Shown here piece by piece: positions 1,319 through 64,000 of a stretch of DNA of 64,000 bases. The position numbers and the translations under genes are program-made. Numbering within the stretch: the stretch's first letter is position 1; each line of letters begins with the position of its first letter. The notes under the pieces are model-generated. The model saw only the letters and a list, made by a program, of their open reading frames with translations. It was not told the DNA's origin and ran no database searches. Origin of the DNA: Terriglobales bacterium (GTDB lineage: Bacteria; Acidobacteriota; Terriglobia; Terriglobales; SCQP01); contig DATKSZ010000149.1 in assembly GCA_035531375.1 (NCBI GenBank), forward strand, positions 903 to 64,902. The letters are read 5' to 3'.

Positions 1319-1500
1319 TCGCGGGGGTCGCGCCGCTTTGCCTGCTGGCAAAATCGGCGCGAAAGCCTGCGAAATTCCGCAGGAGGGGCGGGTGCCAGTG
1401 GCACCCGCCCGCCCCCGGGAAGCGAATGCGGCGCGGCCCCAGCGGGGCGGCTCACAAGCGGGACGCGCGCCGCAGGCGCGCGGGGGCCCGCGCCCACCAT
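1319..1500 (+). repeat. mosaic hairpin repeat, copy A (short form)
   Basis: Starts tcGCGGGGGTCGCGCCGCTTTGCCTGCTGGCAAAATCGGCGC and ends GGGGCCCGCGCCCACC. Shares modules with the copies at 25957, 32385, 34633, 47163 and 63835. Confidence 0.9.
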
Positions 1501-1567
1501 CGCCCGCCGCAGGCAACTTTCGGCGCGCGGCCCGGCATCGGTCCTAGCAGACCGAGAGGCGGCCGCC

Positions 1568-1951
1568 ATGTCGAAACGTATTGCCTTCCCCGCCGCGCTC
1601 GCCGCCCTCCTCCTGGCGGCGGCCGGCATCGTCTCCCTGGGCCAGCCGGGCGCCGGCCGCGCCGCGCCTCCGCTCCAGGCCGCGGCCCAGCCGCCCGGCC
1701 CCGGCATGCAAGCCGGCATGGGGCAGGGCATGATGCAGCACATGACTCCGGAGCAGCGCCGCCGCATGCAGCTCCACCGCCAGCGCCTGCAGCAGCTCAC
1801 CACCCAAATGCGCGCCCACATGGCCGAGCTCGCCCAAGCTCCGCCCGCCGTGCGCCAGCAGTTCGAACTGATCACCCGGGCCTTCGAAGAAATGCAGCAG
1901 ATGCGGGCGATGATGCCGCCCCCGCCGGCCCCGGGGCGGCAGCACCGCTGA
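1568..1951 (+). CDS. Met-rich periplasmic protein with LTXXQ-like motif (Spy/CpxP/ZraP-like)
   Basis: Leader MSKRIAFPAALAALLLAAAG. Motif HMTPEQRRRM. Many M/Q residues (MQAGMGQGMMQHM, QQMRAMM). Lies next to copper genes. Confidence 0.55.
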   Translation: MSKRIAFPAALAALLLAAAGIVSLGQPGAGRAAPPLQAAAQPPGPGMQAGMGQGMMQHMTPEQRRRMQLHRQRLQQLTTQMRAHMAELAQAPPAVRQQFELITRAFEEMQQMRAMMPPPPAPGRQHR

Positions 1952-1963
1952 GCCCGCAAGCCC

Positions 1964-2536
1964 TCACATGATGGGCTCCGGGAAGATGCTCTTGGGGTTG
2001 TAGGCCTTCATCGCCTCCACCTCGGCCGGGGTTTGCTGCGGCAGATGTCGGATCAGCGACACCAGCATCCAGATCTCGTCGTTCTCGTCGTCGGGCCAGG
2101 CCGGCATGCCGCTCAGCCGGATGCCGTTGCGGATGGTGTAGAACAGCTCCCCGTCGCTCTTGTCCTGGGTGAGCGGCGCCCGCAGGTCGGGCGGCTTGGG
2201 ATAGAGATCGCGCCCCAGGTCGGTCAGCCCGTCCCCGTTGTTGTTGTGGCACAGGGCGCAGTGGGCGGCGAAGTGCTGGCTGGCCATGGTCAAATTGGCC
2301 GGCGTGGTGGGGAGCGGATTCCGCATCGCCGCCGCCTGGCTGGGCATGGCCATGCGGCGCGCCATGTCGGCCATCATCGCCTCCATGGCGGTGGGCGGGG
2401 CGGTGGCGCTGAAGCCCTGCGCCGACTTTACCCACAGCAGGCCAGCGCCAACCACCACCACCGCCAGGATGGCCAGAGTCAGCGCCAACAGCCAGCCCAG
2501 GCGCCGGCGGATCAACCCGGAGTTCTGCTGGCTCAT
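1964..2536 (-). CDS. membrane-anchored c-type cytochrome with Met-rich linker
   Basis: CALCH haem motif. N-terminal TM helix. Met-rich stretch AMEAMMADMARRMAM. ATGA overlap with the upstream TolC-like gene. Paralog at 49909-50373. Confidence 0.8.
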   Translation of the reverse strand: MSQQNSGLIRRRLGWLLALTLAILAVVVVGAGLLWVKSAQGFSATAPPTAMEAMMADMARRMAMPSQAAAMRNPLPTTPANLTMASQHFAAHCALCHNNNGDGLTDLGRDLYPKPPDLRAPLTQDKSDGELFYTIRNGIRLSGMPAWPDDENDEIWMLVSLIRHLPQQTPAEVEAMKAYNPKSIFPEPIM

Positions 2537-3864
2537 TGCCCGCCTCCCATCGTGCCCATGGACAGCGCCGCCGGCGCCGCCCCCATGCGGTCCAGGCCCT
2601 GCGTCGCCAAATAGCCGCGCAGCGTCACCGCGCTGCGCCACAGTTCCGCCTCCGCCGCCAGATAGCCGGTCTGCTCCTGGAACCAATTGCGCTGCGCCAC
2701 CAGCACCTGCGGGTAGGCAGCCGCCATGTGGTGGTAGTTGTTCAGATACAACGCATAGGCCTGCCGCGCCTGCGGCAACATGTGGTCGCGGTACTGCGCC
2801 ACCGCCAGGGACGCCGCCTGGTAGGCGGCGAGCTGGGGAGCGGCTTGGGCGCGCAGGCTCAAGCGCACCCGCTCCAGCTCCTGTTGCGCCCGGTCGAGCT
2901 CGGCCACCGCGGCCTCGACATTGCCTTGGTTGCGGTTGAAGAGCGGCAACTGCACCCCCACCGAGGCGAAGCCCTGCCAGCCCACCGGGCGCTGGCCGAG
3001 CTGGTCGAGCTCGCGGTTCGCCTCCACCCCGCCCCGCAGTTGCAGGTCGGGGATGGGCTGCTTGCGGGCGCGGCGCAGGGCGGCCTGCGCCTGCGCCACT
3101 GCCGCCTCGGCGATGCGTACCGCCGGGCTCTCGGTCAGCAGCCGCTGCACGTAGGGCTGCGGTAGGATCGGGGCGGGCGGCGTCGCCAAGTCGCCCGCCA
3201 GCGGCTGCGGTTGCAGGCTGGGCTGGCCCACCGTCGCGGCCAGTTGCGCCCAGTCCTGGGTCCGCATCTGTTGGGCTTGGTTCAGGTCCAGTTGCGCCTG
3301 CCCCGCCTCCACCTGCGCCTCGAGCTGGTCGGGCTGGTCGGCCTGGCCCACGTTGGCCAGTTGCGCCGTGGTGCGCACCGCGTCCTGGGCGATGGCGAGC
3401 AGGTGCTGGCGCAGCGCCACCTCCTGCTGCGCGCGCAGGGCCTCGTAGAAGGCCAACTGCACCGCGGTGCCAACCGCTTGGCCCTGGCCGGCGGCGCGCG
3501 CCTGCTGCTGCCGCTGGGCCGCCGCCGCCTCCTGGCGCGCCGCCCCCAGCTTGCCGCCCAGCACAATATCCTGCTGCACGAACGCGCCCTGCTCGCCGCC
3601 GCGGAACGAGCCGCCGCGGATCTGGGCGCCCTCGTAGCCCACCGTCGGGTTGGGCCACAGCCCCGCTTGGCGGGTGCGCCCGGCCGCCGCCGCCACGTTG
3701 TCGCGGGCCTGGCGCAGGGTCGGGTTGTGCGCCAGCGCGAGCTGCTCCAGCGCCGCCAAGGTGAGCGGCGCCGCAGCGGTTTGCGCCGCCGCCCGCCCCG
3801 CCATCCCTCCGCCGCCGAGCGCGGCGAACAGCACCGCAATCAAAGGAAGATGGAGTCGTTTCAT
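2533..3864 (-). CDS. TolC-family outer membrane efflux protein
   Basis: Start at MKRLHLPLIAVLFAAL (leader). Coiled Q/A-rich repeats and LPLFNRNQGN typical of outer membrane factor proteins. 4-nt overlaps with both neighbours. Confidence 0.8.
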   Translation of the reverse strand: MKRLHLPLIAVLFAALGGGGMAGRAAAQTAAAPLTLAALEQLALAHNPTLRQARDNVAAAAGRTRQAGLWPNPTVGYEGAQIRGGSFRGGEQGAFVQQDIVLGGKLGAARQEAAAAQRQQQARAAGQGQAVGTAVQLAFYEALRAQQEVALRQHLLAIAQDAVRTTAQLANVGQADQPDQLEAQVEAGQAQLDLNQAQQMRTQDWAQLAATVGQPSLQPQPLAGDLATPPAPILPQPYVQRLLTESPAVRIAEAAVAQAQAALRRARKQPIPDLQLRGGVEANRELDQLGQRPVGWQGFASVGVQLPLFNRNQGNVEAAVAELDRAQQELERVRLSLRAQAAPQLAAYQAASLAVAQYRDHMLPQARQAYALYLNNYHHMAAAYPQVLVAQRNWFQEQTGYLAAEAELWRSAVTLRGYLATQGLDRMGAAPAALSMGTMGGGQ

Positions 3865-5258
3865 TGCTGGTCTGCCTTTCCCGCTTGGGCGCGGAGTTGC
3901 TGGATCTTGTCGTATATCTCCGGGCGCAGCACCCGCACGATGGTCATCATGCCCTGGATGCTGCCACTCCAGCCCGGCTGCAGCCCGTAGGTCTCCGGTT
4001 TGGCCACGGCTGCGTCCATGGCCATCGCCGGACCCTCCATGTAGGCGTCCTGGGGAAAGCCCGGCACTTGGTTGGCGTGGGCGGCGATGCTGTCCGGCAT
4101 CTGCATGCCCGGCATGCTCGGGCTCGTCGCCTGGCCGCCCTGTGGCCCGTTGGTCACCGGGTGTTCGCGCCCCGGCAAGCCCATGCCGCGCCCCAGGCTG
4201 GCGCCGAACTGGTCCGAGAGCGCGGCGGCGCCTTCCTGCACCATGCCCATGCCGCTCTCCATGCTGCCCGCCGCCGGCATCCCCGGGGTGCGCGTCATCG
4301 GCCCCACCGTCGAGGCCATCTGGTTCATCATGTGGTGCGGCAAGTGGCAGTGCAGCATCCACTCCCCCAGGTGAACCGCGTCGAACTCCACGTCGTAGGC
4401 CTGCGCCACCCCCACCAGCACGGTATTGCGCCGGATCCAGTTCGACTCCGGCTGCCGCCCCCCCTCGGTGCCGGTGATCCAGAACTGGAAGCCGTGCAGA
4501 TGGATGGGATGGTGGTCCATGCCCATGTTGATCAGCCGAATCTTGACCTTCTCGTTGTGGCGGACGATCAGCGGCGTGGTGGCGGGCCCGGATTTGCCGT
4601 TGAAGGTCAGCCAGTTGAACTCCATGCTCATGGTGTTGGGCACCGGGTTGTTGGGCAGGGCGGCGAACTCCTGCATGACGATCAGGAAATCCTTGTCCAC
4701 CTGCGTCGAGTAGGGCTGGCGCGGCTGCAGCACCAGCGGCCCGATCAGGCCGAGCATCTCCTGCATCGCCATGTGCGAGTGGTAGAAGTAGGTGCCCTCC
4801 TGATGCAGGGTGAATTCATAGACGAAGCGTCCCCCGGGCAGCACCGGCGGTTGGGTGATGCTGGTCACCCCGTCCATGGCGTTGGGCACCTCCAATCCGT
4901 GCCAGTGGATGGAGATGGGCTCGGGCAAATGGTTGTCGAAGACGATCCGAACCCGGTCGCCCTGGTTGGCCTCGATCAGCGGTCCGGGCGAGCTGCCGTT
5001 GAATCCCCACAGGTCCAGCGTCTTGCCCGGGATGAGTTCTTGCCGCACCGGCTCGGCGCGCAGGCGAAAGACCTTGACGCCGTGGTCGAGCGTCCAGGGC
5101 AGCTTGGCCAGATCGGGGGTTTGCACCGCGACCGGCCCCGGCGCCCCGGGGGCGGGGAAGGGAAGCGGGGGCGGCGCCGCCGCGGCGCGGCGCCCCAGCG
5201 CCAGGCCGCCGGCGCCCAGCGCCAGGGCCTGTTGCAGAAAGCTCCTGCGGTTGCTCAT
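3861..5258 (-). CDS. Tat-exported multicopper oxidase (CopA/PcoA-like)
   Basis: Twin-arginine leader MSNRRSFLQQALALGAG. Copper ligand motifs HWHGLEV, HPIHLHG, HCHLPHHMMNQM. Met-rich insert. GAGG Shine-Dalgarno sequence before the ATG at 5258; an alternative ATG lies at 5276. Confidence 0.85.
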   Translation of the reverse strand: MSNRRSFLQQALALGAGGLALGRRAAAAPPPLPFPAPGAPGPVAVQTPDLAKLPWTLDHGVKVFRLRAEPVRQELIPGKTLDLWGFNGSSPGPLIEANQGDRVRIVFDNHLPEPISIHWHGLEVPNAMDGVTSITQPPVLPGGRFVYEFTLHQEGTYFYHSHMAMQEMLGLIGPLVLQPRQPYSTQVDKDFLIVMQEFAALPNNPVPNTMSMEFNWLTFNGKSGPATTPLIVRHNEKVKIRLINMGMDHHPIHLHGFQFWITGTEGGRQPESNWIRRNTVLVGVAQAYDVEFDAVHLGEWMLHCHLPHHMMNQMASTVGPMTRTPGMPAAGSMESGMGMVQEGAAALSDQFGASLGRGMGLPGREHPVTNGPQGGQATSPSMPGMQMPDSIAAHANQVPGFPQDAYMEGPAMAMDAAVAKPETYGLQPGWSGSIQGMMTIVRVLRPEIYDKIQQLRAQAGKADQQ

Positions 5259-5382
5259 GGGAACCTCATTGCCCATCCGCCAGCGCGCGGCGCCGGCGGG
5301 AATCGGAGTGGAAAAGGAGCGGGGCGCGGCCTCCCGACGACGGGGGGCGAATGCCCTCGGCGGTGAGATGGCGGGCGGAGGT

Positions 5383-5712
5383 CTAGAGGCGCAGGGGCGC
5401 GGTCGTCGCCGCGCCGGGCGGCGAGGCGGAGCGGGGTGGCTGCCGCTCGAGGAAGTGCGCCGTCAGCGCGGGGCGGGCGGGCGCGGCGGGAGCCCTCCGG
5501 GGCGCCGCCGATGGCGGCGTGGCGCGCTCGCTCCGGCTCAGGCTGGGCTGCTGCGTCCGGCACACCGCGCAGCAATCGGGCGCGGCCTTCTGGCTGCAGC
5601 CGGCCATGGGACCCGACTGGGTGGCTCCGGCGGCGCAGCAGGGACACCCCGCCAGCATGGCGCCCAGGCTCAACCACACCGCCAAGACCAAGTTCAATGC
5701 GCTGCCTGCCAC
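5383..5712 (-). CDS. small leader-bearing Cys-rich protein (possible metal-binding lipoprotein)
   Basis: Starts 6 nt after the murG stop, heading the copper operon. LAGC lipobox-like site, then CPCC..PMAGC..DCCAVC. The tail is low complexity, so the true extent is uncertain. Confidence 0.35.
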   Translation of the reverse strand: MAGSALNLVLAVWLSLGAMLAGCPCCAAGATQSGPMAGCSQKAAPDCCAVCRTQQPSLSRSERATPPSAAPRRAPAAPARPALTAHFLERQPPRSASPPGAATTAPLRL

Positions 5713-5717
5713 GGTTT

Positions 5718-6794
5718 TCAGTCTACCATTCGGCTCGCGGCGGCCGCCGCCAACACCAGCGCGGCGATCTCCTCGGCGGCGCGGGGATGGGCGAAGCCCC
5801 CGACCGCCTGCCGCATGGCCTCGAGCCGCGCCGGGGCGGCGAGCAACTGCTCGATGCGCGCCCCCAGCCCGGCCGGGCTGAGCCTGGCCTGCTCCATCAC
5901 CTCCGCCGCGCCCGCCCGGGCGTAGGCCTGGGCGTTGCGCAACTGGTGCTGGTCGGCGGCGCCGGGGAAGGGAACCAGGATGGCCGGCCGCCGCGCCGCC
6001 GCCAGCTCGCCCAGCGTGCTGGCCCCGGCGCGGCCCACCACCAGCGCCGCCTCCGCCATGGCCGCCGCCATGTCGTCCACAAACGCCACCGCCCGCGCCC
6101 GCCCCCCCAGCCCGGCGTAGGCGGCTTGGCAGGCCCCGAGGTCGGCGGCCCCGGTCTGGTGCAGCAGGCGGAAGGCGACCTGCGGCGCCATCTCCCGCAC
6201 CACTTGATTGAGGGCGTGGGCGCCCTGGCTGCCGCCAGTGACCAATACCAGCGGCGGCCCGGACGCCGCCGCCGCCGCGGCGGCGGCGCGGAAGAACTCC
6301 GGCCGCACCGGAATCCCGGTCACCACCGCCCGCCGGAAGTCGCGCGCGGTCTCGGGAAAATTGACCGCCGCGGTCGCCACCCAGGGCGCCGCCCAGCGGT
6401 TGGCCAGCCCGGTCTTGGCGTTGACCTCGAGCACCACCACCGGCACCCGCAGCAGCGCGGCGGCGGCCAGCACCGGCCCGGAGGCGTAGCCGCCGATGCC
6501 CAGCACCGCCTGCGCCCGCAGCCGCCGCAGCAGCCCGACACTGTGGGCGACCGCCCGCGGCAACTGCGCCAGCGTCGCCAGCCGCCGCCCCGCCCCCCCC
6601 GTCTTCAGCCCCCCGATCCGGATCGTCTCCAGCCGGAAGCCGGCCGCCGGCACCAGCTTCGCCTCCAGCCCCCGCGCCGTGCCCACGAAGGCGGCCGGCT
6701 CCGCCCCCGCCGCGCGCAGCGCCCGCGCCACCGCCAGTCCGGGCATCAGGTGCCCGCCGGTGCCGCCGCCGGCGATGACGATGCGGGCGGCCAT
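5718..6794 (-). CDS. murG: UDP-N-acetylglucosamine--N-acetylmuramyl-(pentapeptide) pyrophosphoryl-undecaprenol GlcNAc transferase
   Basis: MAARIVIAGGGTGGHLMPGLAVA N-terminus, GGYASGP, TGGSQGA motifs. Position in the dcw cluster. Confidence 0.9.
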   Translation of the reverse strand: MAARIVIAGGGTGGHLMPGLAVARALRAAGAEPAAFVGTARGLEAKLVPAAGFRLETIRIGGLKTGGAGRRLATLAQLPRAVAHSVGLLRRLRAQAVLGIGGYASGPVLAAAALLRVPVVVLEVNAKTGLANRWAAPWVATAAVNFPETARDFRRAVVTGIPVRPEFFRAAAAAAAASGPPLVLVTGGSQGAHALNQVVREMAPQVAFRLLHQTGAADLGACQAAYAGLGGRARAVAFVDDMAAAMAEAALVVGRAGASTLGELAAARRPAILVPFPGAADQHQLRNAQAYARAGAAEVMEQARLSPAGLGARIEQLLAAPARLEAMRQAVGGFAHPRAAEEIAALVLAAAAASRMVD

Positions 6795-6796
6795 GC

Positions 6797-7885
6797 TCAG
6801 CCGGTGTGCTGCGACACGTTCAGCAGCACCCCCACCGCCGCCAGCGAGAAGATTAGCGACGAGCCCCCGTAGCTGATGAACGGCAGCGGGATCCCCTTGT
6901 TGGGCACCAGGCTGGTGACCACGCTGAAGTTGATCAGCGCCTGGATCACCACCATCGCCGTCACCCCGATGGCCAGCAGCTTGGCGAAGGCGTCGGGGGC
7001 CCGGCGCGCGATCCGCATCCCCCGCCACAGGAACACCAGAAACGCCGCCACCACCAGGGTGCAGCCCACCCAGCCCAGCTCCTCGCCCACCACCGCGAAG
7101 ATGAAGTCGGTGTGCGCCTCCGGCAGGAAAAACAGCTTCTGCCGCCCGTTCATCAGCCCCACCCCGGTCCAGCCCCCCGAGCCCACCGCGATCAGCGACT
7201 GCACGATCTGGAAGGCCGCCCCGCGCGCCTCCGCCCAGGGATGCAGGAACGCCAGGATGCGCTCGCGCCGGTAGGCGACGTGGAAGATGAGCAGGTACAG
7301 CGCCGGCAGGCTCGCCACCACGCCCAGGCCCAGCAGCCGCCAGCGCAGCCCGGCGGCGTAGAGCATGGTGGCGGCGATCAGCACCAGCGCCACCGTGGTC
7401 CCCAGGTCGGGCTCGGCCACCACCAGCCCGCACACCATCGCCAGGTAGAACAGGATGGGTCCCAGCGTGCTCCACTCGTTCACCTGCCGCAGCCGCGTCT
7501 CCAGGTAGAAGGCGAGGAACAGGATCAGCGTCGGCTTGGCCAGCTCCGACGGCTGCAGCGACAGCGGCCCCAGCCGGATCCAGCGGTGGGTGTTGTGCGA
7601 GCGGTCGAGCAGGAACACCAGCCCCAGCAGGAAGAGGGTGACGCACAGCAGCAGGTAGACCACCCCGGGGTCCTTCAGCCGGCGGTAGTCGAAGCGCATG
7701 ATCAGCACCAGCGCCGCCAGCCCCAGCCCCGCCCCCACCGCCTGGCGCAGCACAAAGCTGTAGGGCGACTGGGTGCGCTCGGCCGCCATCAGCGCCGAGG
7801 CGGAGAACACCATCACCAGCCCGAACGTCACCAGGCCCAGGGTGGTGAGGAAGAGCACGCGGTCGTAGGCGAGGCGCTTGGGCAT
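6797..7885 (-). CDS. ftsW: SEDS-family cell division protein FtsW
   Basis: Polytopic membrane protein; motifs PEAHTDFIF and LPFISYGGSS. Lies between murD and murG. Confidence 0.9.
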   Translation of the reverse strand: MPKRLAYDRVLFLTTLGLVTFGLVMVFSASALMAAERTQSPYSFVLRQAVGAGLGLAALVLIMRFDYRRLKDPGVVYLLLCVTLFLLGLVFLLDRSHNTHRWIRLGPLSLQPSELAKPTLILFLAFYLETRLRQVNEWSTLGPILFYLAMVCGLVVAEPDLGTTVALVLIAATMLYAAGLRWRLLGLGVVASLPALYLLIFHVAYRRERILAFLHPWAEARGAAFQIVQSLIAVGSGGWTGVGLMNGRQKLFFLPEAHTDFIFAVVGEELGWVGCTLVVAAFLVFLWRGMRIARRAPDAFAKLLAIGVTAMVVIQALINFSVVTSLVPNKGIPLPFISYGGSSLIFSLAAVGVLLNVSQHTG

Positions 7886-7889
7886 GGCG

Positions 7890-9260
7890 CTAGCGCGCGG
7901 CGGCCAGTCCCGCCACCAACTGCTTGAACACCTGGCCGCGGTGGCCGTAGTTCTGGAACTGGTCGAAGCTGGCGCAGGCCGGCGCCAGCAGCACCGTGTC
8001 GCCCGGCTGCGCCCGCTCCGCCGCCGTCGCCACCGCCTGGTCGAGCGTGCCGCAGCGGGTGAGCGCCAGCCCCGCCGGGCCCAGTTGCGCCGCGATCTTC
8101 TCGGTGGCGGCGCCGATCAGCAGCACCCCGCGCGCCCGCGCTTCCAACAGCGGCGCCAGCGCGCTGTAGTCGCTGCCCTTGTCCTTGCCCCCCAAGATGA
8201 TCCACACCCCCTGCCCAAACGCCTCCAGCGCCTTGATCGCCGCGTCCACGTTGGTGGCCTTGGAGTCGTTGTAGTAGTCCACCCCCCCCACCTGGGCCAC
8301 GAACTCCAGCCGGTGCTCCACCGCCCGGAAGCTCCGCACCGTCTGCGCCAGCGCCGGCGCCGCCTCTTCCCCCGCCACCAGGCAGGCCATCGCCACCGCC
8401 GCCAGCACGTTCTCCAGGTTGTGCGCCCCGCGCAGCGGGATCTCCGCCACCGGCAGGATGGGCGTCGCCTGGCCGCCGCGCATCCACACCACCTCGCCCC
8501 CGCGCACGCACGCCCCCGTCTGCCGCTCCAGCGCGAAGGGCGCGAACCACACCGGCTGGCTGGCCAGGTTGGCGGCGAACTGCCGGCACCAGGCGTCGTT
8601 GGGGTTGAGCACGGCGTAGTCGGCCGCGGTCTGGTTGCGGAAGATGCGCTGCTTGGCCGCCGCGTAGGCCTCCATGCTGCCGTGCCGGTCGAGGTGGTCG
8701 GGCGAGAGGTTCAGCACCGCCGCGATGTGGGCGTGGAAGCTCTCCACCGTCTCCAACTGGAAGCTCGACACCTCGATCACGTTGACGCAGTCGTCGCTGG
8801 AGCTGTCCACCAGCGAGATCAGCGGGGTGCCGATATTGCCCCCCACCTGCACCCGCCGCCCGCTCGCCGCCAGCAGCTCGCCCGTCAGGCTGGTGGTGGT
8901 GGTCTTGCCGTTGGCCCCGGTGATCGCCACCACCATGCCGCGCAGGTGGCGCGAGGCCAGCTCGATCTCCCCCCATACCGGGATCGCCTGCGCCCGCGCC
9001 CGCTTCAGCAGCGGCAGGTCGGCCGGCACCCCCGGGCTCACCACGATCAGGTCGGCGTCCAGGAAGCTGCGCTCGCGGTGCCCGCCCGTCTCCACCGCCA
9101 CCCCGGTCTGCAGCAGTTGGAAGATCTCCGCCCGCAGCTCCGCCGCCGGCCGCATCTCCGAGATCACCACCCGCGCCCCCCGCCGCCGCAAAAACTCCGC
9201 CGCCGCCATGCCGCTGGCGGCCATGCCCACAACCAACACGCGCTTGCCGTTGAGTTCCAT
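7890..9260 (-). CDS. murD: UDP-N-acetylmuramoylalanine--D-glutamate ligase
   Basis: VVGMAASG N-terminus, ITGANGKTTT P-loop, Mur ligase C-terminal region. dcw context. Confidence 0.9.
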   Translation of the reverse strand: MELNGKRVLVVGMAASGMAAAEFLRRRGARVVISEMRPAAELRAEIFQLLQTGVAVETGGHRERSFLDADLIVVSPGVPADLPLLKRARAQAIPVWGEIELASRHLRGMVVAITGANGKTTTTSLTGELLAASGRRVQVGGNIGTPLISLVDSSSDDCVNVIEVSSFQLETVESFHAHIAAVLNLSPDHLDRHGSMEAYAAAKQRIFRNQTAADYAVLNPNDAWCRQFAANLASQPVWFAPFALERQTGACVRGGEVVWMRGGQATPILPVAEIPLRGAHNLENVLAAVAMACLVAGEEAAPALAQTVRSFRAVEHRLEFVAQVGGVDYYNDSKATNVDAAIKALEAFGQGVWIILGGKDKGSDYSALAPLLEARARGVLLIGAATEKIAAQLGPAGLALTRCGTLDQAVATAAERAQPGDTVLLAPACASFDQFQNYGHRGQVFKQLVAGLAAAR

Positions 9261-9272
9261 GCGGTTTTCAGG

Positions 9273-10406
9273 TTAGCGCAACTTCAGCGTGGTCAGCGCG
9301 AACAATGCGCAGACCGCGGCGATGATCCAAAAACGGATGATCACCTTCGACTCGCTCCAGCCCAAATGCTCGAAGTGGTGGTGCAGCGGCGCCATCTTGA
9401 AGATGCGCTTGCCCCGCAGCTTGTAGCTGCCCACCTGCAGGATCACCGACAGCGCCTCGATCACAAAAATGCCGCCCAGGAACGGCAGCAGCAGCTCCTG
9501 CTTGATCAGCACCGCCACCGTCCCGATCGCCCCCCCCAGCGCCAGCGAGCCCACGTCCCCCATGAAGATCTCCGCCGGATGGGCGTTGTACCAGAGGAAG
9601 CCGATGCTCGCCCCCACCATCGCCCCCCCGAAGATGGTGAGCTCGCCCACCTGCGGCATGCGCTCGATCTCCAGGTAGGTGGCAAACACCGCGTGCCCGG
9701 AGACGTAGGTCAGCACCGTCAGCGCCCCGGCGGAGATGATGGTGCAGCCGATCGCCAGCCCGTCCAGCCCGTCGGTGAGGTTGACCGCGTTGCTCGAGCC
9801 CACCACCACCAGCACCACGAACAGGATGAAGGGCAGGAACGCCACCAGGTACCAGCCCGGGTGCCCCAGCAGCCCGTTGAAGGCCAGGTTGGGGCGGTAG
9901 GCCTTGAAAAACGGCACCACCAGCCGGGTGGAGTAGCGCCCGGCGTGGTTCAGCCACACCAGGATGAGCGCGATCGCCACCGCCGCCAGCACCTGCGCCA
10001 GCAGCTTCTGGCGCGAGGTCAGGCCCAGGTTGCGCTGCCGCCGCACCTTGGCCAAATCGTCCGCCAGCCCGATCGCGCCAAACGCCACCACCGCCAAAAT
10101 CGCGATCCAGATGAAGGGGTTGGCCAGGTCGGCCCACAACAGCGTTGGCACCAGGATGGCGATGTTGATGAGCAGCCCGCCCATGGTGGGCGTGCCCGCC
10201 TTGGCGTGGTGCGAGCGCGGCCCGTCCTCGCGGATGTACTGGCCGATCTGGAAGGCCTGCAGCCGCCGGATCAGCCACGGCCCCAGCACCAGCGCGATCG
10301 CCAGCGCCGTCAGCCCGGCGAAGGCGGTGCGGAAGGTGAGGAAGCGGAACAGCCGCAGCGGCCGGTAGTAGGGAAACAGCTTGCGGTAGAAGAGCCAGTA
10401 GAGCAT
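9273..10406 (-). CDS. mraY: phospho-N-acetylmuramoyl-pentapeptide transferase
   Basis: HHAKAGTPTMGG, NAVNLTDGLDGLA, MGDVGSLALGG, APLHHHFE motifs. Confidence 0.95.
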   Translation of the reverse strand: MLYWLFYRKLFPYYRPLRLFRFLTFRTAFAGLTALAIALVLGPWLIRRLQAFQIGQYIREDGPRSHHAKAGTPTMGGLLINIAILVPTLLWADLANPFIWIAILAVVAFGAIGLADDLAKVRRQRNLGLTSRQKLLAQVLAAVAIALILVWLNHAGRYSTRLVVPFFKAYRPNLAFNGLLGHPGWYLVAFLPFILFVVLVVVGSSNAVNLTDGLDGLAIGCTIISAGALTVLTYVSGHAVFATYLEIERMPQVGELTIFGGAMVGASIGFLWYNAHPAEIFMGDVGSLALGGAIGTVAVLIKQELLLPFLGGIFVIEALSVILQVGSYKLRGKRIFKMAPLHHHFEHLGWSESKVIIRFWIIAAVCALFALTTLKLR

Positions 10407-10412
10407 GGGGTC

Positions 10413-11653
<1,241 letters not shown>

Positions 11654-11657
<4 letters not shown>

Positions 11658-13144
11658 AGGCTCCAGCCCAGTTCCGCCAGCGCCGCCCGCGCCTGCTGCG
11701 CATCGTCGAAGGGCAGGCGCTGCTCGCCCACGATCTGGTAGGCCTCGTGCCCCTTGCCGGCCAGCACCACCACGTCGCCCGCCCGCGCCGTGCGCAGCGC
11801 CAGGCGGATGGCGCTGGCGCGGTCGGCGTCCACCAGCACCGCCCCCGGCTCGACCCCGGCCAGCGCCTCGCGGATGATCGCCAGCGGGTCCTCCGAGCGC
11901 GGGTTGTCGCTGGTCAGCACCACCCAATCCGCCCCCCGCCGCGCCGCCTGCGCCATCAGCGGCCGTTTCCCCCGGTCGCGGTCGCCGCCGCAGCCAAACA
12001 GCACCAGCACCCGCCCCGGCGTGGCGCCCTCGCCGCTGGCCAGCTCGCGCGCCAGCCCCAGCACGTTGGCCAGCGCGTCCGGGGTGTGGGCGTAGTCCAC
12101 CAGCACCACAAACGGCTGGCCGGCGTAGACGCGCTCAAACCGCCCCGGCACCCGCCGCAGCCGGCTCGCCCCCTCCACCACCGCCTCCCGCTCCAGCCCC
12201 ATCGCCCAGCCCGTCCCGATCGCCGCCAGCAGGTTGAGCACGTTGGCCCGCCCCACCAGCGGCGTCGCCACCTCGGCGCGGTACCCTCCCGGGCCGCTCA
12301 GCGTGAACGTCGCCCCCGCCGGCCGGTTGCGCAGCCCGCTGGCGCGCAGCTCCGCTCCTTCTCCCAGCCCGTAGCGCACCACCTCGCCGCCATAGCCCGC
12401 CAGCATCGCCACGCTCGCCGGGTCGTCGGCGTTCACCACCGCCGCCCGCGGCGCCGCCGCCCCCAGCCCCCGGAACAGCCGCCGCTTCGCCTCCTGGTAG
12501 CCCGCCATGGTGCCGTGGTAGTCGAGATGGTCCTGGGTCAGGTTGGTGAACACCGCCACCTCGAAGGCGCAGCCCCACACCCGCTCCATCGCCAGCGCGT
12601 GGGAGGAGACCTCCATCACCGCCGCCTGGCACTCCGCCGCCACCATGCGCGCCAGCAGCGCCTGCAGGTCGTAGGACTCGGGCGTGGTGTGGGGCGAGGG
12701 CAAAACCGCTTCGCCGATATGGTACTCCACCGTGCCCAGCAGCCCGCTGCGGATGCCGGCGGCGCGCAGCAGCTCCTCCACCAGCCAGGCGGTGGTGGTC
12801 TTGCCGTTGGTGCCGGTGATGCCCACTAGGCGCAGGCGCTCCGCCGGGCGGCCGAAAAAATTGGCCGCCGCCTGCGCCAGCGCCCTGCGCGCCTGCCCCA
12901 CCTGCACCCAGGCCACCCCCAACTCCCCCGCCGGCGCCGCCTGCTCCGACAGCACCACCGTGGCGCCTTGGCGCCGCGCCTGCGGCACAAAGGCGTTGCC
13001 GTCGGCCTGCTCCCCCCGGATCGCCACAAACGCCCAGCCCGGCTCGATCCGGCGCGAGTCGTAGTGCAGCCCGGCCACGGCGGCGGGCGCGGGCCCGCTC
13101 CGGGCCAGCACCGGAACGTCGCGCAGGAGCTGGTCCAGGGTCAT
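11654..13144 (-). CDS. murE: UDP-N-acetylmuramoyl-L-alanyl-D-glutamate--2,6-diaminopimelate ligase
   Basis: Start MTLDQLLRDV. GITGTNGKTTT, DYAHTPDAL, GCGGDRDRGKRP, DNPRSEDP (DAP-type) motifs. Confidence 0.9.
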
Positions 13145-13161
13145 GGGGGGTTCCTCCAGGG

Positions 13162-15192
13162 CTAGGGCTGCGTCGCCGCGAAGCGCACCATCACCCGTCC
13201 GCCCGCCGCCAGCCGCGTCCCGGCGGCGGGCGCTTGTGCGCGCGCCACGCCACTTCCCTGCAAGGCAAGGTCCAAACCCAGGCGCGCGCAGGCGGCCGAC
13301 ACCGCCCGCACCGATTCGCCGCTGAAGTCCGGCACCACCACCCCGGCGCCGGCGCCGTAGCGCAACACCACCATCGCCGGCGGCACCGCCGGCCCCGCCG
13401 CCGGCTGCGCCGGCGCCGCCAGCGGCAGCTCCGCCACCTCCTGCGACTCTTCCTGCGCGTCGGCGGCGGCGATATGCACCGGCGCCGGCTCCGCCACCAC
13501 CGGGATGTCGTGCGGCACCCCCAGGTAGGGCAGCACCCGCTCGGCGATCTCCTTGAACACCGGACCCGCCACCGCTCCGCCCTCGTGCCCGTCCCGGGGC
13601 GAGTCCAGCACCACCAGGATGGTCACCGCCGGATCGTTGATCGGCGCGAAGCCGCCAAACGAGGCCACGTAGTCCCGCGCCGAGTAAAGATGGGTGCCGG
13701 GATCCACTTTTTGCGCGGTGCCGGTCTTGCCGGCGGCGGTGTAGCCGTTGAGCTGCGCCTGCTGCGCCGTGCCCGCCAGCACCACCTGCGCCATCATCTG
13801 CTTCATCTCGTTCGCCACCCGCTCGCTCACCACCCGCCGCCCCGGCTCCCCCGCCTCCTCCGCCGCCTGCGCCGGCGCCGCCCCGCTGAACTCGCCCAGC
13901 ACCACCCGCGGCTGGTGGTAGACCCCGCCGTCCGCCAGGGTCGAGATCATGGCGATCACCTGCAGCGGCGTTACCGCCACCTCCTGCCCCATGCTCACCG
14001 CCCCGATGGACATCGGCGTCCAGCGCGCCACCGGCCACACGATCCCGCGCGACTCGCCCGGCAGCATCACCCCCGTCGGCGCGCCAAAGCCGTAGGCCCG
14101 GATGTAGTGGTAAAACTCGTCATCGCCGAGCTTGAGCCCGATCTTGATCGCCCCCACGTCGCTGGAGTGCCGCAAAATATCGCTCACGCTCATCACCCCG
14201 AACTTGGCGTGGTCGTGGATGATGCGCCCGCCCAGAAAGATCGAGCCCATCTGGCAGTTGATCATCTCCTCCGGGGTGATCAGGTGCTGCTGCAGCGCCG
14301 CCGACAGCGTCACCAGCTTGAACACCGAGCCCGGCTCGTAGGGATCGCTCACCGCGGCATCGCCCAGAGCGGCGGCGGGGGCGTTCTCGAAATCGTTGGG
14401 ATCGAAGCTGGGCGAGTTGGCCAGCGCCAGGATCTGCCCGTTGTGGGGATCCTCCACCACGGCCACGCCGCGCAGCGCGTGGTGGGCGGCCACCGCCCGG
14501 TCGAGCGCCTGCTGGGCGATGAACTGGATGTTCTGGTCGAGGCTGAGCACCAGGTTCTTGCCCTCCACCGGGGGGCGCTCGACCTGGCTGTAGCTCTGCC
14601 CGTGGGCGTCCACCTCCAGCACCGCCCGCCCGTTGCGGCCGTGCAGCACCGGGTCGAAGGAGTGCTCGATGCCGCCCAGGCCGTGCCCGTCCATCCCAAC
14701 GTAGCCCAGCACGCTCGCCGCCAGTTGGCCCTTGGGATAGAAGCGCCGCGTGTCGGGCTGGGCGAATACCCCGGCCAGGTGCAGCGCCGCCACCGCCTGC
14801 GCCTGGTCGGCGGTCACCTGGCGCGCGATCCAGACAAAGCCGCGCCGCTCGCGCAGGGTGCGCGCCAACTCGCTCCGGTCCAGCCCCAGGATGGGCGCCA
14901 GCGCCCGCGCCGCCGCCCCCGCGTCCCCCACCTGGCGGGGGTTGGCGAACAGCGACTGCACCGGCAGGCTCATCGCCAGCGGCGTCAGGTGGCGATCATA
15001 GATGGCGCCGCGCTGCGCCTCCACCGTCACCGTGCGCTGCTGCTGCAGTTGCGCCCGCCGCGCCAGCCAGGCGTGGTCCACCACCTGCAGCCAGAACAGC
15101 CGCGCCACCACCAGCAGCGCCCAAAGCGTCAAGCCCGCCTGCAGGCTGAGCAGGCGGTAGCGGGGGGTGGACTGGCGCTCGACGTTCGGCAT
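13162..15192 (-). CDS. ftsI: penicillin-binding protein 3-like transpeptidase with C-terminal PASTA-like domain
   Basis: N-terminal TM anchor. PBP dimerisation and transpeptidase regions (SVFK, SSD, AGKTGTA). Last ~60 aa match the PASTA pattern VPDFSGESVR..GL..GSG.V..Q.P..G. Confidence 0.9.
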   Translation of the reverse strand: MPNVERQSTPRYRLLSLQAGLTLWALLVVARLFWLQVVDHAWLARRAQLQQQRTVTVEAQRGAIYDRHLTPLAMSLPVQSLFANPRQVGDAGAAARALAPILGLDRSELARTLRERRGFVWIARQVTADQAQAVAALHLAGVFAQPDTRRFYPKGQLAASVLGYVGMDGHGLGGIEHSFDPVLHGRNGRAVLEVDAHGQSYSQVERPPVEGKNLVLSLDQNIQFIAQQALDRAVAAHHALRGVAVVEDPHNGQILALANSPSFDPNDFENAPAAALGDAAVSDPYEPGSVFKLVTLSAALQQHLITPEEMINCQMGSIFLGGRIIHDHAKFGVMSVSDILRHSSDVGAIKIGLKLGDDEFYHYIRAYGFGAPTGVMLPGESRGIVWPVARWTPMSIGAVSMGQEVAVTPLQVIAMISTLADGGVYHQPRVVLGEFSGAAPAQAAEEAGEPGRRVVSERVANEMKQMMAQVVLAGTAQQAQLNGYTAAGKTGTAQKVDPGTHLYSARDYVASFGGFAPINDPAVTILVVLDSPRDGHEGGAVAGPVFKEIAERVLPYLGVPHDIPVVAEPAPVHIAAADAQEESQEVAELPLAAPAQPAAGPAVPPAMVVLRYGAGAGVVVPDFSGESVRAVSAACARLGLDLALQGSGVARAQAPAAGTRLAAGGRVMVRFAATQP

Positions 15193-15231
15193 GGTACAGG
15201 CCCCCAGCGGGTGGCGCGCCGCCCCGCGCCG

Positions 15232-15636
15232 CTAGCGATTGCCGGCCGCCATCGGCGCCGGCGCGGTGTTCGCCGCCAAGGCCGGCGCCACCCCGTTGCT
15301 CGGCGCCGTCGCCAGCGCCAGGATCTGCCCCGGCTGCGCCGTCTGCATGCCCAACTGCGCCTGCGCCAGGGTATAAATTCGGTCCGGGCTGCGCAGCGCC
15401 GCCTGCTGCAGTTCCAGCCCGCGGTTCCACTGCTCCAGGCTGGCCGCCTGCTGCCGCGCCGCCTCCAACTGGTAGCCCAGCCGCACCATCTCGAAGCGCT
15501 GCCAGGCGTAGCCGAAGCCCAGCGCGAACACCACCATCACCGCCGCCAGGTACACCCGCTGCTCCCGCCGCCGCTGCGGGTCGGCGACGCGGACCACGCG
15601 CGAGTTGTCAATTTGTTGTACGAAGTAGATCTCCAT
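15232..15636 (-). CDS. ftsL: FtsL-like cell division protein
   Basis: Single TM helix (VYLAAVMVVFALGFGYAW) followed by a coiled region. Conserved slot between rsmH and ftsI. Confidence 0.6.
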   Translation of the reverse strand: MEIYFVQQIDNSRVVRVADPQRRREQRVYLAAVMVVFALGFGYAWQRFEMVRLGYQLEAARQQAASLEQWNRGLELQQAALRSPDRIYTLAQAQLGMQTAQPGQILALATAPSNGVAPALAANTAPAPMAAGNR

Positions 15637-15637
15637 C

Positions 15638-16540
15638 TCAGCCCTCCGCCCCCAACCGCTCCACCGCCCGCAGCTTGGCGCTGCGCGAACGCGGGTTCCG
15701 CGCCGCCTCCGCCGCGCTCGGCCGCAACGGCCGCGGCGTCAAAATCCGGTACCAGCCCGCCTGCGCCCCCGCCCGGAAGCTCTGCTTCACCGGACGGTCC
15801 TCCAACGAATGAAAACTGATGATCACCGCCCGGCCGCCCGGACGCAGCCAGCTCGGCAATATCTCCAGCAACTCGGCAAGGGCCTGCAACTCGGAGTTCA
15901 CGTAGATGCGCAGCGCCTGAAACGTCCGCGTCGCCGGATGCGGCCCCCGGCTGCGTTTCATTGGCCGGTTCACGGCCGCCACCAACTCCGCCAACTGGGC
16001 GGTGCTGCGCAGCGGCCGCGACCGGACAATGGCTCTGGCAATTCTCCGCGACCTCCTTTCCTCTCCGAATTGGAAAATCAGATCGGCCAGCTCGCGCTCG
16101 TCGAACTGATTCACCACCTGTTCCGCCGTCAGCGGCTGGCGAGGATCCATCCTCATGTCCAGCGGCCCCGCGGCGGCAAAGCTAAATCCCCGTTCGGGAC
16201 GGCCGAGCTGCATCGAGCTCACCCCCAGGTCGGCCACCACGCCGTCCACCTGGTCCATCCCCTCCGCCCGCAGCGCCCTCGCCCCTGCGGCAAAGTCCTG
16301 CTGCCGGGCCTCGAACTCCACCTCCCGCTCCCCCCGCCCCGCCAGCGCCTTCTCCGCCAGCGCCAGCGCCTCCGGGTCGCGGTCGAACCCGATCAACTTC
16401 CCCCGCCCCATCGCCGCCGCGATCCGCAGGCTGTGGCCGCCCGCTCCCAGCGTGCAGTCCACATACACCCCCCCCGCCCGCGGCGCCAAATACTCCACCA
16501 CCTCGTCGGCCATGACCGCGACATGTTCCGCCCCGGCCAC
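15638..16540 (-). CDS. rsmH: 16S rRNA (cytosine1402-N4)-methyltransferase
   Basis: HVAVM..VDCTLGAGGHS, FDRDPEA, DLGVSSMQL, ISFHSLEDR motifs. Confidence 0.9.
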   Translation of the reverse strand: MAGAEHVAVMADEVVEYLAPRAGGVYVDCTLGAGGHSLRIAAAMGRGKLIGFDRDPEALALAEKALAGRGEREVEFEARQQDFAAGARALRAEGMDQVDGVVADLGVSSMQLGRPERGFSFAAAGPLDMRMDPRQPLTAEQVVNQFDERELADLIFQFGEERRSRRIARAIVRSRPLRSTAQLAELVAAVNRPMKRSRGPHPATRTFQALRIYVNSELQALAELLEILPSWLRPGGRAVIISFHSLEDRPVKQSFRAGAQAGWYRILTPRPLRPSAAEAARNPRSRSAKLRAVERLGAEG

Positions 16541-16546
16541 GCCGCC

Positions 16547-16990: not shown

Positions 16991-16999
16991 TTTCTTCCC

Positions 17000-17034
17000 A
17001 CCACAATTTACCACTTCTCACCACTTCTGCCCAC
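17000..17034 (-). promoter_or_regulatory. four direct GTGG[G/T] boxes at exact 10-bp spacing (candidate MraZ operator)
   Basis: Minus strand reads TAATAT-GTGGG-CAGAA-GTGGT-GAGAA-GTGGT-AAATT-GTGGT-GGGAAGAAA-ATG. This is a 5-nt box plus 5-nt spacer architecture like the known MraZ repeat operators. Confidence 0.5.
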
Positions 17035-17062
17035 ATATTAGTGGCTGGGAGCCCGAAGTCAA
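17035..17062 (-). promoter_or_regulatory. sigma70-like promoter of the dcw operon
   Basis: Minus strand carries TTGACT (17062-17057), a 16-nt spacer, then TAATAT (17040-17035), in an AT-richer gap. Confidence 0.55.
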
Positions 17063-17209
17063 GTCCGGAATTGCACATTTTTTCCGGTATCTGCCCTGTT
17101 ACGCGAAGAAAAGGCGAAGAAAGCCTGGCGGCCGCACGCCCAGCGCCGGCCGTTCGCTTCCGGATTTCGGCGAGTGGCCCTAAAGGCGGCAGTGCGCATC
17201 GCACCTTCG

Positions 17210-20085: not shown

Positions 20086-20094
20086 GAAGGGGCC

Positions 20095-53482: not shown

Positions 53483-53515
53483 CGCCCTCCCAACCCAGCC
53501 CCGCCGGCCGCGGTG

Positions 53516-53556
53516 GCACAGCCCGTCTTGGCTGTGCAGGCGCCAGCTTGGCTGGC
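53516..53556. terminator. two adjacent hairpins between convergent genes
   Basis: GCACAGCC-CGTCTT-GGCTGTGC and GCCAGC-TTG-GCTGGC. No U-run. Confidence 0.35.
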
Positions 53557-54607: not shown

Positions 54608-54654
54608 CGTGCGATAGCCAAACACGATGGCTCTATTATAGTCCCCTCGCCGCC

Positions 54655-54773
54655 GCGCGAGCATGCCGCCCCGCGCTGTTACAGCGGGGCGGCTCACAAG
54701 CGGGCCGCGCGCCGCACCGGCCTGGCGCTTGCTACAGCCGGGCCGGGCAGGCGCGCTGGGGCCCGCGCCCACC
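54655..54773 (+). repeat. mosaic repeat, H6 plus nested tail modules (copy H)
   Basis: GAGCATGCCGCCCCGCG...GGGGCCCGCGCCCACC. Lies between two minus-strand genes, yet in plus orientation. Confidence 0.85.
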
Positions 54774-54794
54774 AAGGCGCGCCCGCGCCCGTCT

Positions 54795-62400: not shown

Positions 62401-62544
62401 GTTCACCTGGATGGTGGGAAAGTCCACGTTGGGCAGGTCGCTCACCGGCAGCGCCCGGTAGGCCACGATGCCAAACACCAGCAGCGCCATCATCAGCAGC
62501 GCGGTGGCGATCGGACGGCGGATGAAGATGCTCGCCAGGTTCAT
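59443..62544 (-). CDS. RND efflux transporter permease (AcrB/HAE1-like)
   Basis: [19 protein letters not shown]-terminus. 12-TM, two-large-loop architecture. 1033 aa. Confidence 0.95.
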
Positions 62545-62547
62545 GCC

Positions 62548-63705
62548 CTACTCCTGCGCCTGCGTGCCCGGATTGGGCCCCGCCCCCTGCGCCTGTACCC
62601 CCGGCCGCACCGTCACCTTCGCCCCCGGGTACAGCGCCAACTGCCCGTCGGTCACCACCGTCTCCCCCGGCGCCACCCCCTTGGCGATCACCGTCACCCC
62701 GTTGGCCGTGGTCGAGGTGGTCACGGTGCGGTTCTCCACCGTCCCCGCCGGCGTCACCACGTACACGTACATGTCGTTCTGTCCGGTCAGCACCGCCGTC
62801 GAGGGCACCACCGTCGCCCCGTCCTGCACCGACAGCGTCACGTCGGTGTTGACATACTCGCCCGGCCACAGCCGCTGCTGCGCGTTGGGAAAGGTCCCCA
62901 TCAACTGGATGGTGGCGGTGCTGTTGTCAATGCTGTTGTTGATGAAGCTCAGCACCCCCGCCTCCGGCGACGCCTCCCCCTGCGCCTGCGCCCGCACCTG
63001 CAGCGGATGCCGCGCGTTCAGCGCCTTCAGCTCCAGCAGGTACTGCTCCGGCACCGAAAACGAGACGTAGATCGGCGCGATCTGGTTGATCGTCACCAGC
63101 ACCGTCGCGTTGGGCTGCACTACGTTGCCCGCCTGCACCAGCAGGCTGCCGGTGCGCCCGTCAATCGGCGAGGCGATGGTGCAGTAGCTCAGGTTCAGCT
63201 TCGCCGTCTCCACCGCCGCCCGGTCCGCCCGCACCACCGAGTCGTCCGCCGCCGCCGCCGCCTGCAACTGCTCGTTCTGCTCCACCGACACGATCCCCTG
63301 CTTGGCCAGGTCGCCGTAGCGCTTGGCCTCCACCTGCGCCTGGCTGTCGTTGGCCAGGTCGCGCGCCAGGTTGGCCTGCGCCTGCGCCAAGGCCGCCTGG
63401 TAGGGCTGCGGGTCTATGGTGAACAGCACCTGCCCCTTGTGCACCTCGTCGCCTTGGCGGAAGCCCACCGTCTTCAGCTCCCCCCCCACCAGCGACTTCA
63501 CCGACACCGTCGCCATCGCCTGCACCGAGCCGATTGCCTCCAGCCGGGTCGGCACATTTTGCGTCGTGGCGCGAGCCACCGTCACCGCCACCGGCGCCAG
63601 CGCCGCCGCCTTGGGCGTGGCCGCCTTGCAGCCCGCCAGCAGGCTGGCCAGCAGCCCCATCGCCGCCGCGGCGGCCAAAGTCCGAGCAGGTGTCGAAAGT
63701 CGCAT
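62548..63705 (-). CDS. RND efflux periplasmic adaptor (membrane fusion protein)
   Basis: Start MRLSTPARTLAAAAAMGLLASLLAGC (lipobox). GDEVHKGQVLFTIDP lipoyl/hairpin motifs. Confidence 0.85.
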   Translation of the reverse strand: MRLSTPARTLAAAAAMGLLASLLAGCKAATPKAAALAPVAVTVARATTQNVPTRLEAIGSVQAMATVSVKSLVGGELKTVGFRQGDEVHKGQVLFTIDPQPYQAALAQAQANLARDLANDSQAQVEAKRYGDLAKQGIVSVEQNEQLQAAAAADDSVVRADRAAVETAKLNLSYCTIASPIDGRTGSLLVQAGNVVQPNATVLVTINQIAPIYVSFSVPEQYLLELKALNARHPLQVRAQAQGEASPEAGVLSFINNSIDNSTATIQLMGTFPNAQQRLWPGEYVNTDVTLSVQDGATVVPSTAVLTGQNDMYVYVVTPAGTVENRTVTTSTTANGVTVIAKGVAPGETVVTDGQLALYPGAKVTVRPGVQAQGAGPNPGTQAQE

Positions 63706-63834
63706 AGTCGGGCGCGGGGGCTCGCCGTCGCGCACACCCCCCCAGACTTTCAATTGTATATCCGTCGGCCCGGTTTTTCCCCGCCTTCTCCCCCTTCCTT
63801 TTCCCCGGTTACGGTTAATGACAGCCTTGTCCGA

Positions 63835-64000
63835 TCGCGGGGGTCGCGCCGCTTTGCCAGCTGGCAAAACCGGCGCGAAAGGCTGCGAACCGGGGTCCCC
63901 AGAACCCGCTTCGGGTTCTGGGGTGGTCGTAATTCCGCAGGCGCAGACGCGCCAGTGGCGCGTCTGCGCCCCCGGGAAGCGAATTCGGCGCGGCCCCAGC
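63835..64000 (+). repeat. mosaic hairpin repeat, copy I (truncated by window end)
   Basis: H1, H2 and H3 modules nearly identical to copy G. Confidence 0.9.

Follow-up and report, generated by a model that had tools for sequence, protein, structure and literature searches.

Why should a repeat that recurs along a chromosome always point the same way? The question is raised by a stretch of 64,000 nucleotides from an uncultured Terriglobales bacterium (Acidobacteriota; assembly GCA_035531375.1, contig DATKSZ010000149.1), analysed here as a whole and referred to as the window, in which an initial annotation had described ten copies of a mosaic repeat built from hairpins, all in one orientation. 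The mosaic repeats are real and abundant, and they form an apparently undescribed family. At a probability of roughly 0.55, we read them as non-autonomous DNA repeats of nested and branched hairpins, similar to repetitive extragenic palindromes (REPs) and bacterial interspersed mosaic elements (BIMEs), and suggest that they move as single-stranded DNA while the chromosome is being replicated. A hairpin-recognising enzyme of the HUH (Y1) type would mobilise the elements as single strands at the replication fork, in a mode that we liken to the "peel-and-paste" transposition of the IS200/IS605 insertion sequences (ISs) and to the processing of REPs that has been proposed for REP-associated tyrosine transposases (RAYTs), and insertion coupled to the fork would fix one orientation per replichore.

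Orientation of the copies and strand asymmetry

All ten copies are found where the initial annotation had put them, give or take about 20 nt (nhmmer and blastn, with the copy at 47163-47500 as query), and all ten lie on the plus strand, both by nhmmer and by sensitive blastn; the only minus-strand matches in the window are palindromic hairpins that pair with their own complement. The 16-nt terminus of the repeat, GGGGCCCGCGCCMACC, occurs exactly eight times in the window, on the plus strand each time, and when up to two mismatches are allowed there are 12 matches, compared to 2.18 expected, and none of 100 shuffles yields as many as 12. The window has a G+C content of about 71%, and its copies, at a density of about one per 6 kb, add up to about 1.9 kb, or some 3% of its length, a share that we infer may extend to the genome as a whole.

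By scanning metagenomes with the spacer motif of the repeat, we obtained 113 further loci (832 kb, designated by L numbers) from the same metagenome series as the window, mostly non-redundant and none overlapping it, and applied a hidden Markov model (HMM) built from the window copies to the window and these loci together. This yields 237 copies: 147 are full, 61 consist of the tail only, 26 of the head only, and 3 are internal. Adjacent copies are co-oriented in 119-121 cases and discordant in 2; the ratio is 69:2 for copies at least 500 nt apart and 51:2 where a gene intervenes, and orientation is uniform in 58 of the 60 multi-copy loci, while adjacent genes, by comparison, agree in orientation only 338:183. 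With respect to the flanking genes, the orientation of the copies is nearly random and thus not linked to transcription: the upstream gene runs in the same direction as the copy in 89 cases and in the opposite direction in 65, the downstream gene in 67 and 88, respectively. Copies are enriched in intergenic regions between convergent genes (37 of 101, against an expectation of about 17%).

The orientation is tied to strand composition, and the comparison with GC skew and replication strand that had been proposed along with the initial annotation is strongly positive on the 113 further loci. The GC skew at third codon positions (GC3 skew) is -0.208 in genes that run in the same direction as the copies (n=259), whereas anti-oriented genes have +0.020 (n=247; Mann-Whitney p=4e-22), a comparison that isolates a strand effect of about 0.11 from the effects of transcription and codon usage. 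On the copy strand of DNA that is neither genic nor repeat the skew is -0.044. Taken locus by locus, 53 of 76 agree with the strand asymmetry (p=8e-4), and in the window GC skew is negative throughout. The GC3 difference thus places the form of the repeat that is read on the plus strand of the window (hereafter the + form) on the C-rich strand, which by convention is the lagging strand, and this fits the location of the window's dcw cluster on the opposite strand. The earlier claim that the single orientation is not due to chance is therefore borne out by co-orientation as well as by skew.

Copies also come and go between related strains. In L016, a strain 83-99% identical to window positions 3162-21073, a full copy lies between a tRNA gene and an Rce1-like gene, in the promoter region of the tRNA, where the window has only 8 nt (20070-20077). 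L003, a locus from another of the genomes with the tail motif that shares synteny with the dcw cluster of the window (79-86% identity), carries two copies in the dcw region that are absent from the window; they are antisense to the operon and have the window's chromosomal orientation. One further site is filled in L081 and empty in L043, with an insert that has 14 extra nt beginning like the tail terminus, and a BLAST search for empty sites with joined flanks returned one usable pair, at 87% identity.

The tail motif is also found in several other metagenome-assembled genomes (MAGs) labelled Acidobacteria or Terriglobales. JGI sample 3300031670 and ENA assemblies contain the window sequence itself. 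Four IMG/VR contigs classed as viral (L130-L133) likewise contain the tail motif. Several copies abut tRNA genes, as in L041, where the tRNA gene spans 2324-2399 and the copy is at 2402. The region 20095-20863 of the window holds a tRNA gene beside a small gene and a PIN-domain gene that together resemble a VapBC pair, and at the site homologous to this window tRNA L049 has an Arg-tct tRNA.

Modules, ends and folding

Alignment of the copies reproduces the order and the sequences of the modules as initially annotated, namely head, H1, optional H2, H3 (with an AGT loop), spacer, H5, optional H6, tail hairpin and terminus. The repeat is built from three basic units: the tail unit (about 45 nt), domain 2 (about 95 nt), in which H5 and the tail are enclosed by a helix between spacer and tail, and domain 1 (about 90 nt). 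Combined, they make up full elements with lengths of 190-340 nt, and the family as a whole ranges from 45 to 340 nt. The optional modules are perfect hairpins set within the loops of other hairpins. The tail hairpin, GCGCGSC-GCA-GSCGCGC, for instance, may hold a nested hairpin that is bordered on either side by the GCA loop triplet. Of 102 distinct full copies, 38 have H2, 56 a long H3, 89 H5, 31 H6 and 26 the nested tail hairpin, and the optional modules account for the size classes seen among full copies, at about 193, 212, 235, 254, 285-300 and 316-333 nt. Stem variants are fully compensated, as for H2, where CCCCAGAGCCC/GGGCTCTGGGG is found versus CCCCGGGACCC/GGGTCCCGGGG. Domain 2 also occurs in head-to-tail arrays with an 89-nt period (4.6 and 3.1 copies, 97-98% identical), and L061 has five full copies within 2.5 kb.

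Both ends are sharp. The left boundary falls between TC and GCGGGGG, within a consensus C(-6, 98%)-N-N-N-T(95%)-C(93%) that is directly followed by GCGGGGGTCGCGCC, and the right boundary is GCGCC-[C/A/T]ACCA-[A/T], or at full length GGGGCCCGCGCC-[C 51%/A 39%/T 9%]-ACCA-[A/T]; a circle junction between the two ends would be expected to read CACCAW joined to TCGCGGGGG. As initially described, the ends are direct-like and lack terminal inverted repeats (head GGGGGTCGCGCC, tail GGGGCCCGCGCC). Head and tail are in fact imperfect direct repeats of each other, and the spacer, GGCGCGGCCCC, is complementary to both. We considered the ACCA terminus as a tRNA-like 3' end and discarded the idea, since other lineages end in AGTCA, GATCG and similar strings.

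Folded as single-stranded DNA, the short form makes two branched hairpin domains in succession (z-scores of -5.07 on the plus strand and -5.22 on the minus strand). The folding energy is -0.657 kcal/mol per nt, compared to -0.451 +/- 0.084 in random genomic segments.

The individual copies of the window, all on the plus strand, illustrate the range of module combinations. Copy A (1319-1500, about 180 nt) has head, H1, H3, spacer and tail and lacks H5. The degenerate tail remnant that had been reported at 20894-20927 (+) is recovered in a search with the copy at 47163-47500, and in the related strain L016 a 107-nt copy occupies the same place. Copy B (24721-24776) is a minimal tail unit alone, with the stop codon of the open reading frame (ORF) 24033-24779 just beyond it, and copy C (25957-26251) is a long form with H3, H5, H6, the nested tail hairpin and a slightly degenerate terminus. 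Copy D (32385-32585, about 200 nt) represents the commonest short full form and folds as two branched hairpin domains, and copy E (34633-34921), another long form with a partly deleted spacer, lies between convergent genes. Copies F (42120-42222), in a divergent intergenic region, and G' (43213-43307) each consist of domain 2 alone, that is, H5 and tail. Copy H (47163-47498), called G in the initial annotation, is the longest and has all modules (H1, H2, H3, H5, H6 and the nested tail hairpin). Copy I (54637-54775), with H6 and a tail containing the nested hairpin, is antisense to both flanking minus-strand genes, and copy J (63835-64000) is a domain 1 with H2 and H3 that continues past the end of the window. 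The coordinates first assigned hold overall, the corrections being that copy B reaches 24721-24776 and that copy I begins at about 54637.

Some copies are read as protein-coding sequence. The ORF 24033-24779 encodes 248 amino acids without a Pfam match, the last codons being supplied by copy B, and gene callers extend the predicted genes 42002-43171 and 43131-44522 through copies F and G'. In L088, a UbiE/COQ5 methyltransferase gene (964-2055) has an in-frame, mosaic-derived insert of about 100 amino acids between Pfam profile positions 88 and 89.

Search for an enzyme and likeness to known elements

The initial annotation had reported no gene for a single-strand transposase in the window, and our six-frame HMM and motif searches (phmmer with E. 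coli RayT, an HMM of 100 RAYT sequences and a regular expression for HUH...Y) likewise found no Y1 transposase there. In about 1.07 Mb, the only Y1 HUH gene is a class-2 RAYT, at L006 2189-2660 and as the same gene in L047, with the motifs NHVH, WQ and Y..FNP and a match to Pfam Y1_Tnp (PF01797, E=6e-10); its relatives are named RayT by JGI. It had been proposed that RAYT genes flanked by the mosaic hairpins be sought. A mosaic copy does follow this RAYT directly, but the sequence that flanks the gene is REP-X (GTGGCACAGCCAATCYTGGCTGTGC), a different, classic REP. A RAYT homologue in L135 (2309-2863), 66% identical, is flanked on both sides by REP-X-like hairpins. Two side observations concern the L006 gene: its frame continues through REP-X and the mosaic copy without a stop codon, and an IstB/IS21 end (about 1700-2185) abuts its start codon.

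REP-X has 21 matches in about 1 Mb, including window 53513-53545 (+), L006 2659 and 2937, L027 7991, five copies in L099, and copies in L073 and others. It is co-polar with the + form of the mosaic repeat at a ratio of 20:2, and in its 5'-GTGG orientation it lies on the C-rich strand alongside that form. The mosaic tail unit, read on the minus strand, has the form 5'-GT(G 51%/T 39%/A 9%)G-GCGCGGGCCCC...CCCGC. Its foot becomes ACTG, ACGG, ATTG, ATCG or ATAG in related lineages and L135, whereas REP-X keeps GTGG. Given the different flanking REP and the variable mosaic feet, a link between this RAYT and the mosaic family is possible but unproven.

Two other arrangements were considered as sources of an enzyme and rejected. 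The sole case of an apparently autonomous element, with a gene between head and tail, is an IS110-family IS inserted into a copy in L080, and of the two truly discordant pairs that could have enclosed a transposase between inverted copies, one encloses a GH1 beta-glucosidase (L094) and the members of the other lie 8 kb apart (L069). The IS in L080 (about 456-1974; PF01548 and PF02371, frameshifted) sits between the head part and the tail, resembling the IS110/IS1111 elements that target REPs. All genes of L069 have an unusually strong GC3 strand skew (about 0.5-0.6). L008, from another Acidobacteria MAG, holds, as a rare inverted pair, two minimal tail units 415 nt apart (2474-2528, minus strand; 2943-2991, plus strand), the second of which ends 8 nt before an ORF (2999-4252) that by eye resembles a tyrosine (phage-type) integrase.

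Among known systems, the REP/BIME and REPIN elements of class 2 RAYTs resemble the mosaic family in several traits: they are high-copy, intergenic, imperfect palindromes enriched between convergent genes, combine units into mosaics, clusters and tandem arrays, have compensated stem variants and occasional in-frame intragenic copies, and serve as targets of IS110-family elements. Canonical REPs are imperfect palindromes of 20-40 nt with a conserved 5' GT[AG]G foot; the mosaic tail unit, on its other strand, has a hairpin-bulge-hairpin layout and a GTNG foot that gives way to other tetranucleotides in related lineages. Unlike them, the mosaic copies in the window and the loci do not form inverted pairs or inverted dimers, are 98% co-oriented and polar to strand skew, and constitute composites 190-340 nt long that have direct-like ends and fold into two branched domains; moreover, no REPtron (a single RAYT gene flanked by its own REPs) was found, the local RAYT being flanked by another REP. 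With IS200/IS605 elements and their gene-less derivatives (PATE- or MITE-like), the family shares the lack of terminal inverted repeats and of an evident target-site duplication, hairpins near both ends (H1 on the left, the tail hairpin on the right) and a strict orientation bias with respect to the replication strands, as far as their direction can be read from the skew convention. It differs from them in that no autonomous tnpA/tnpB copy sharing the mosaic ends occurs in the 1.07 Mb, that its left and right hairpins are mutually unrelated, and that it is an internally modular mosaic found in tandem arrays. IS200/IS605 elements insert 3' of a fixed tetra- or pentanucleotide target next to their left end; the left flank of the mosaic copies has the C-N-N-N-T-C consensus given above, and the filled and empty sites compared are too diverged for cut sites to be placed. 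IS608 and ISDra2 target the lagging-strand template, and TnpA_REP has been proposed to amplify REP/BIME (PMC6006769, PMC3333891). The sign of the polarity observed here does not simply fit the IS608 rule.

Pneumococcal BOX elements are modular, with the arrangement boxA-boxB(n)-boxC, and the mosaic family resembles them in having a head, a repeated middle unit and a tail, a variable number of internal units, strong folding and intergenic location. There is, however, no sequence relationship, and to our knowledge BOX elements have not been reported to be polar with respect to replication. A miniature inverted-repeat transposable element (MITE) of the terminal-inverted-repeat type (Correia, ERIC and similar) was ruled out, since terminal inverted repeats are lacking and a target-site duplication is not evident. 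Atypical structures have been described around class 3 Y1 genes of Acidobacteria; Solibacter usitatus Ellin6076, with three such genes, has about 600 of them (Quentin 2018, PMC6006769). These repeats, which could be compared by description only, share with ours the phylum, a high copy number and non-canonical hairpins. They have a 5' CnGA foot, and some mosaic H5 hairpins are preceded by CGGA or CCGA, but in most mosaic copies the H5 foot is CGCA, and no class 3 Y1 gene (NHVH...YV..EQ) was found in the 1.07 Mb. Another group, the REPs tagged with CGTC, likewise lacks a transposase of its own; they have 8-9-bp stems starting with A/T pairs, loops of 4-5 nt and mostly a head-to-head dimeric arrangement (Di Nocera et al. 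2013, PMC3733652). The mosaic family shares with them a short unpaired CCA-like tail at one end, a tail hairpin that abuts CGTC on the minus strand and the absence of an identified dedicated transposase, and differs in its 7-bp stem of G/C pairs only, its 3-nt loop and its lack of dimers. At the gathering threshold, Rfam finds one tRNA only in the whole window, and with an E-value threshold copy H scores 16-20 bits at best, where the cut-offs lie at 45-52, without a relevant match. We found no description of the mosaic family in the literature, which refers to the class 3 repeats of Solibacter but gives no sequences for them.

Weighing the explanations

We keep, as the best available reading, the resemblance to REP/BIME and to strand-specific transposition of single strands that the initial annotation suggested, without the linked transposase and the inverted REP pairs that such systems have. 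The mosaic family would be best described as behaving like REP/BIME or IS200/IS605-type single-strand elements; it falls outside both classes as they are defined, because neither inverted pairs nor a REPtron nor an autonomous IS with the same ends was found in the DNA examined. Several results weigh against mobilisation as single-stranded DNA in step with replication. No transposase linked to the family was found in the 1.07 Mb, where the RAYT of L006 and L047 has REP-X at its flanks, and clustering of 663 predicted proteins grouped ordinary paralogues and artefacts of read-through but no multi-copy transposase. About 100 flank pairs show no evident target-site duplication, and no pair of filled and empty sites is close enough to fix the target or the exact ends. 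The 113 loci were chosen for containing a copy and come from several related genomes. The direction of replication is inferred from the skew convention only; it is not corroborated by the bias of genes between the strands (259 versus 247), and tRNA orientation is uninformative as a marker (about 4 versus 4 distinct tRNA genes). The two strands fold equally well, the plus strand better in 50 of 102 copies and the minus strand in 51 (Wilcoxon p=0.54), so that folding does not indicate which strand is active. Finally, the polarity could stem from selection after insertion instead of from the insertion mechanism.

This last possibility, in which one orientation is kept by selection for a replication-oriented chromosome function, be it a signal similar to KOPS, Chi or Ter or the avoidance of a harmful orientation, would account for a co-orientation that is near-absolute (119:2) and tied to strand skew, and the polarity shared by the unrelated REP-X (20:2) could reflect a common constraint. 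We nevertheless regard it as improbable: known polar signals are short oligomers and not variable mosaics of 45-340 nt, the copies are dispensable between strains, and their tandem amplification and truncation resemble selfish spread. Moreover, hairpins that are equally stable on both strands cannot distinguish orientations by their toxicity. One could also speculate that the copies act as RNA, either as structured-RNA genes or as cis-elements (a multi-copy small RNA, or a stabiliser or terminator in 3' untranslated regions), the hairpins being RNA helices. The very stable, branched fold and the compensated stems are what an RNA would have, the extra hairpins within loops recall RNA expansion segments, G.T wobbles exceed A.C on the + form (346 versus 90), and copies are enriched between convergent genes. 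However, the wobble excess tracks two subfamilies and thus few independent events, and the same holds for the covariation of alignment columns 171-345, which we rejected as proof of pairing since one column is tied to the tail-hairpin variant as strongly as to its partner. The flanking genes have almost no bearing on how copies are oriented (89:65 and 67:88), the L003 copies being antisense within the dcw operon; the 5' flank is unconserved, and inspection of the alignment and flanks, though no promoter scan was run, revealed no promoter-like AT-rich motif. There is no Rfam match on either strand, and truncated copies, tandem arrays and the in-frame intragenic copy are typical of DNA repeats. 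Given that the two strands fold alike, a function as RNA would not enforce a polarity, and since polarity ignores gene orientation, a replication-linked asymmetry at the DNA level is more economical than an RNA role, which we therefore consider very improbable.

The family might, alternatively, be an ordinary member of the class 2 REP/RAYT systems, its tail unit on the other strand being a canonical REP with a 5' GT[G/A/T]G foot that is mobilised by the RAYT of L006 and L047. The tail unit does read GT[G/T/A]G-GCGCGGGCCCC...CCCGC on the minus strand, a full mosaic copy follows the RAYT within 60 nt in both loci, and a tail fragment follows the L135 homologue. Yet both RAYTs are directly flanked by REP-X (GTGGCACAGCC...) and not by mosaic units, the mosaic foot varies in L135 and other MAGs where REP-X retains GTGG, and neither inverted REP pairs nor REPINs occur. 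Mosaic copies are also so dense that adjoining any single gene is weak evidence. This explanation, too, appears unlikely.

Replication-coupled mobilisation of single-stranded, REP/BIME-like repeats thus continues to be the explanation that we prefer. A more far-reaching version, which we find conceivable although rather doubtful, is that the mosaic family and REP-X together mark an unrecognised mode of propagation or retention of REP-type repeats that is strictly coupled to one replication strand, with the canonical REP orientation on the C-rich strand, opposite to the IS608 rule. If this were true, it would call for a RAYT-type enzyme whose substrate is the other template strand or nascent lagging DNA, or for a new hairpin-specific enzyme, and the branched two-domain elements would represent a new structural class of substrate.

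Dense, stable hairpins have a practical effect, in that gene callers read through copies and copies act as IS targets, as in L080. How REP-type repeats move is still largely inferred, and since canonical REPs form inverted pairs, any strand preference they may have is hidden. The mosaic family and the co-polar REP-X thus provide a natural system for testing fork-coupled insertion or retention of REP-like hairpins, and the orientation of the repeats could indicate the direction of the replichore in fragmentary metagenome assemblies of the same lineage.

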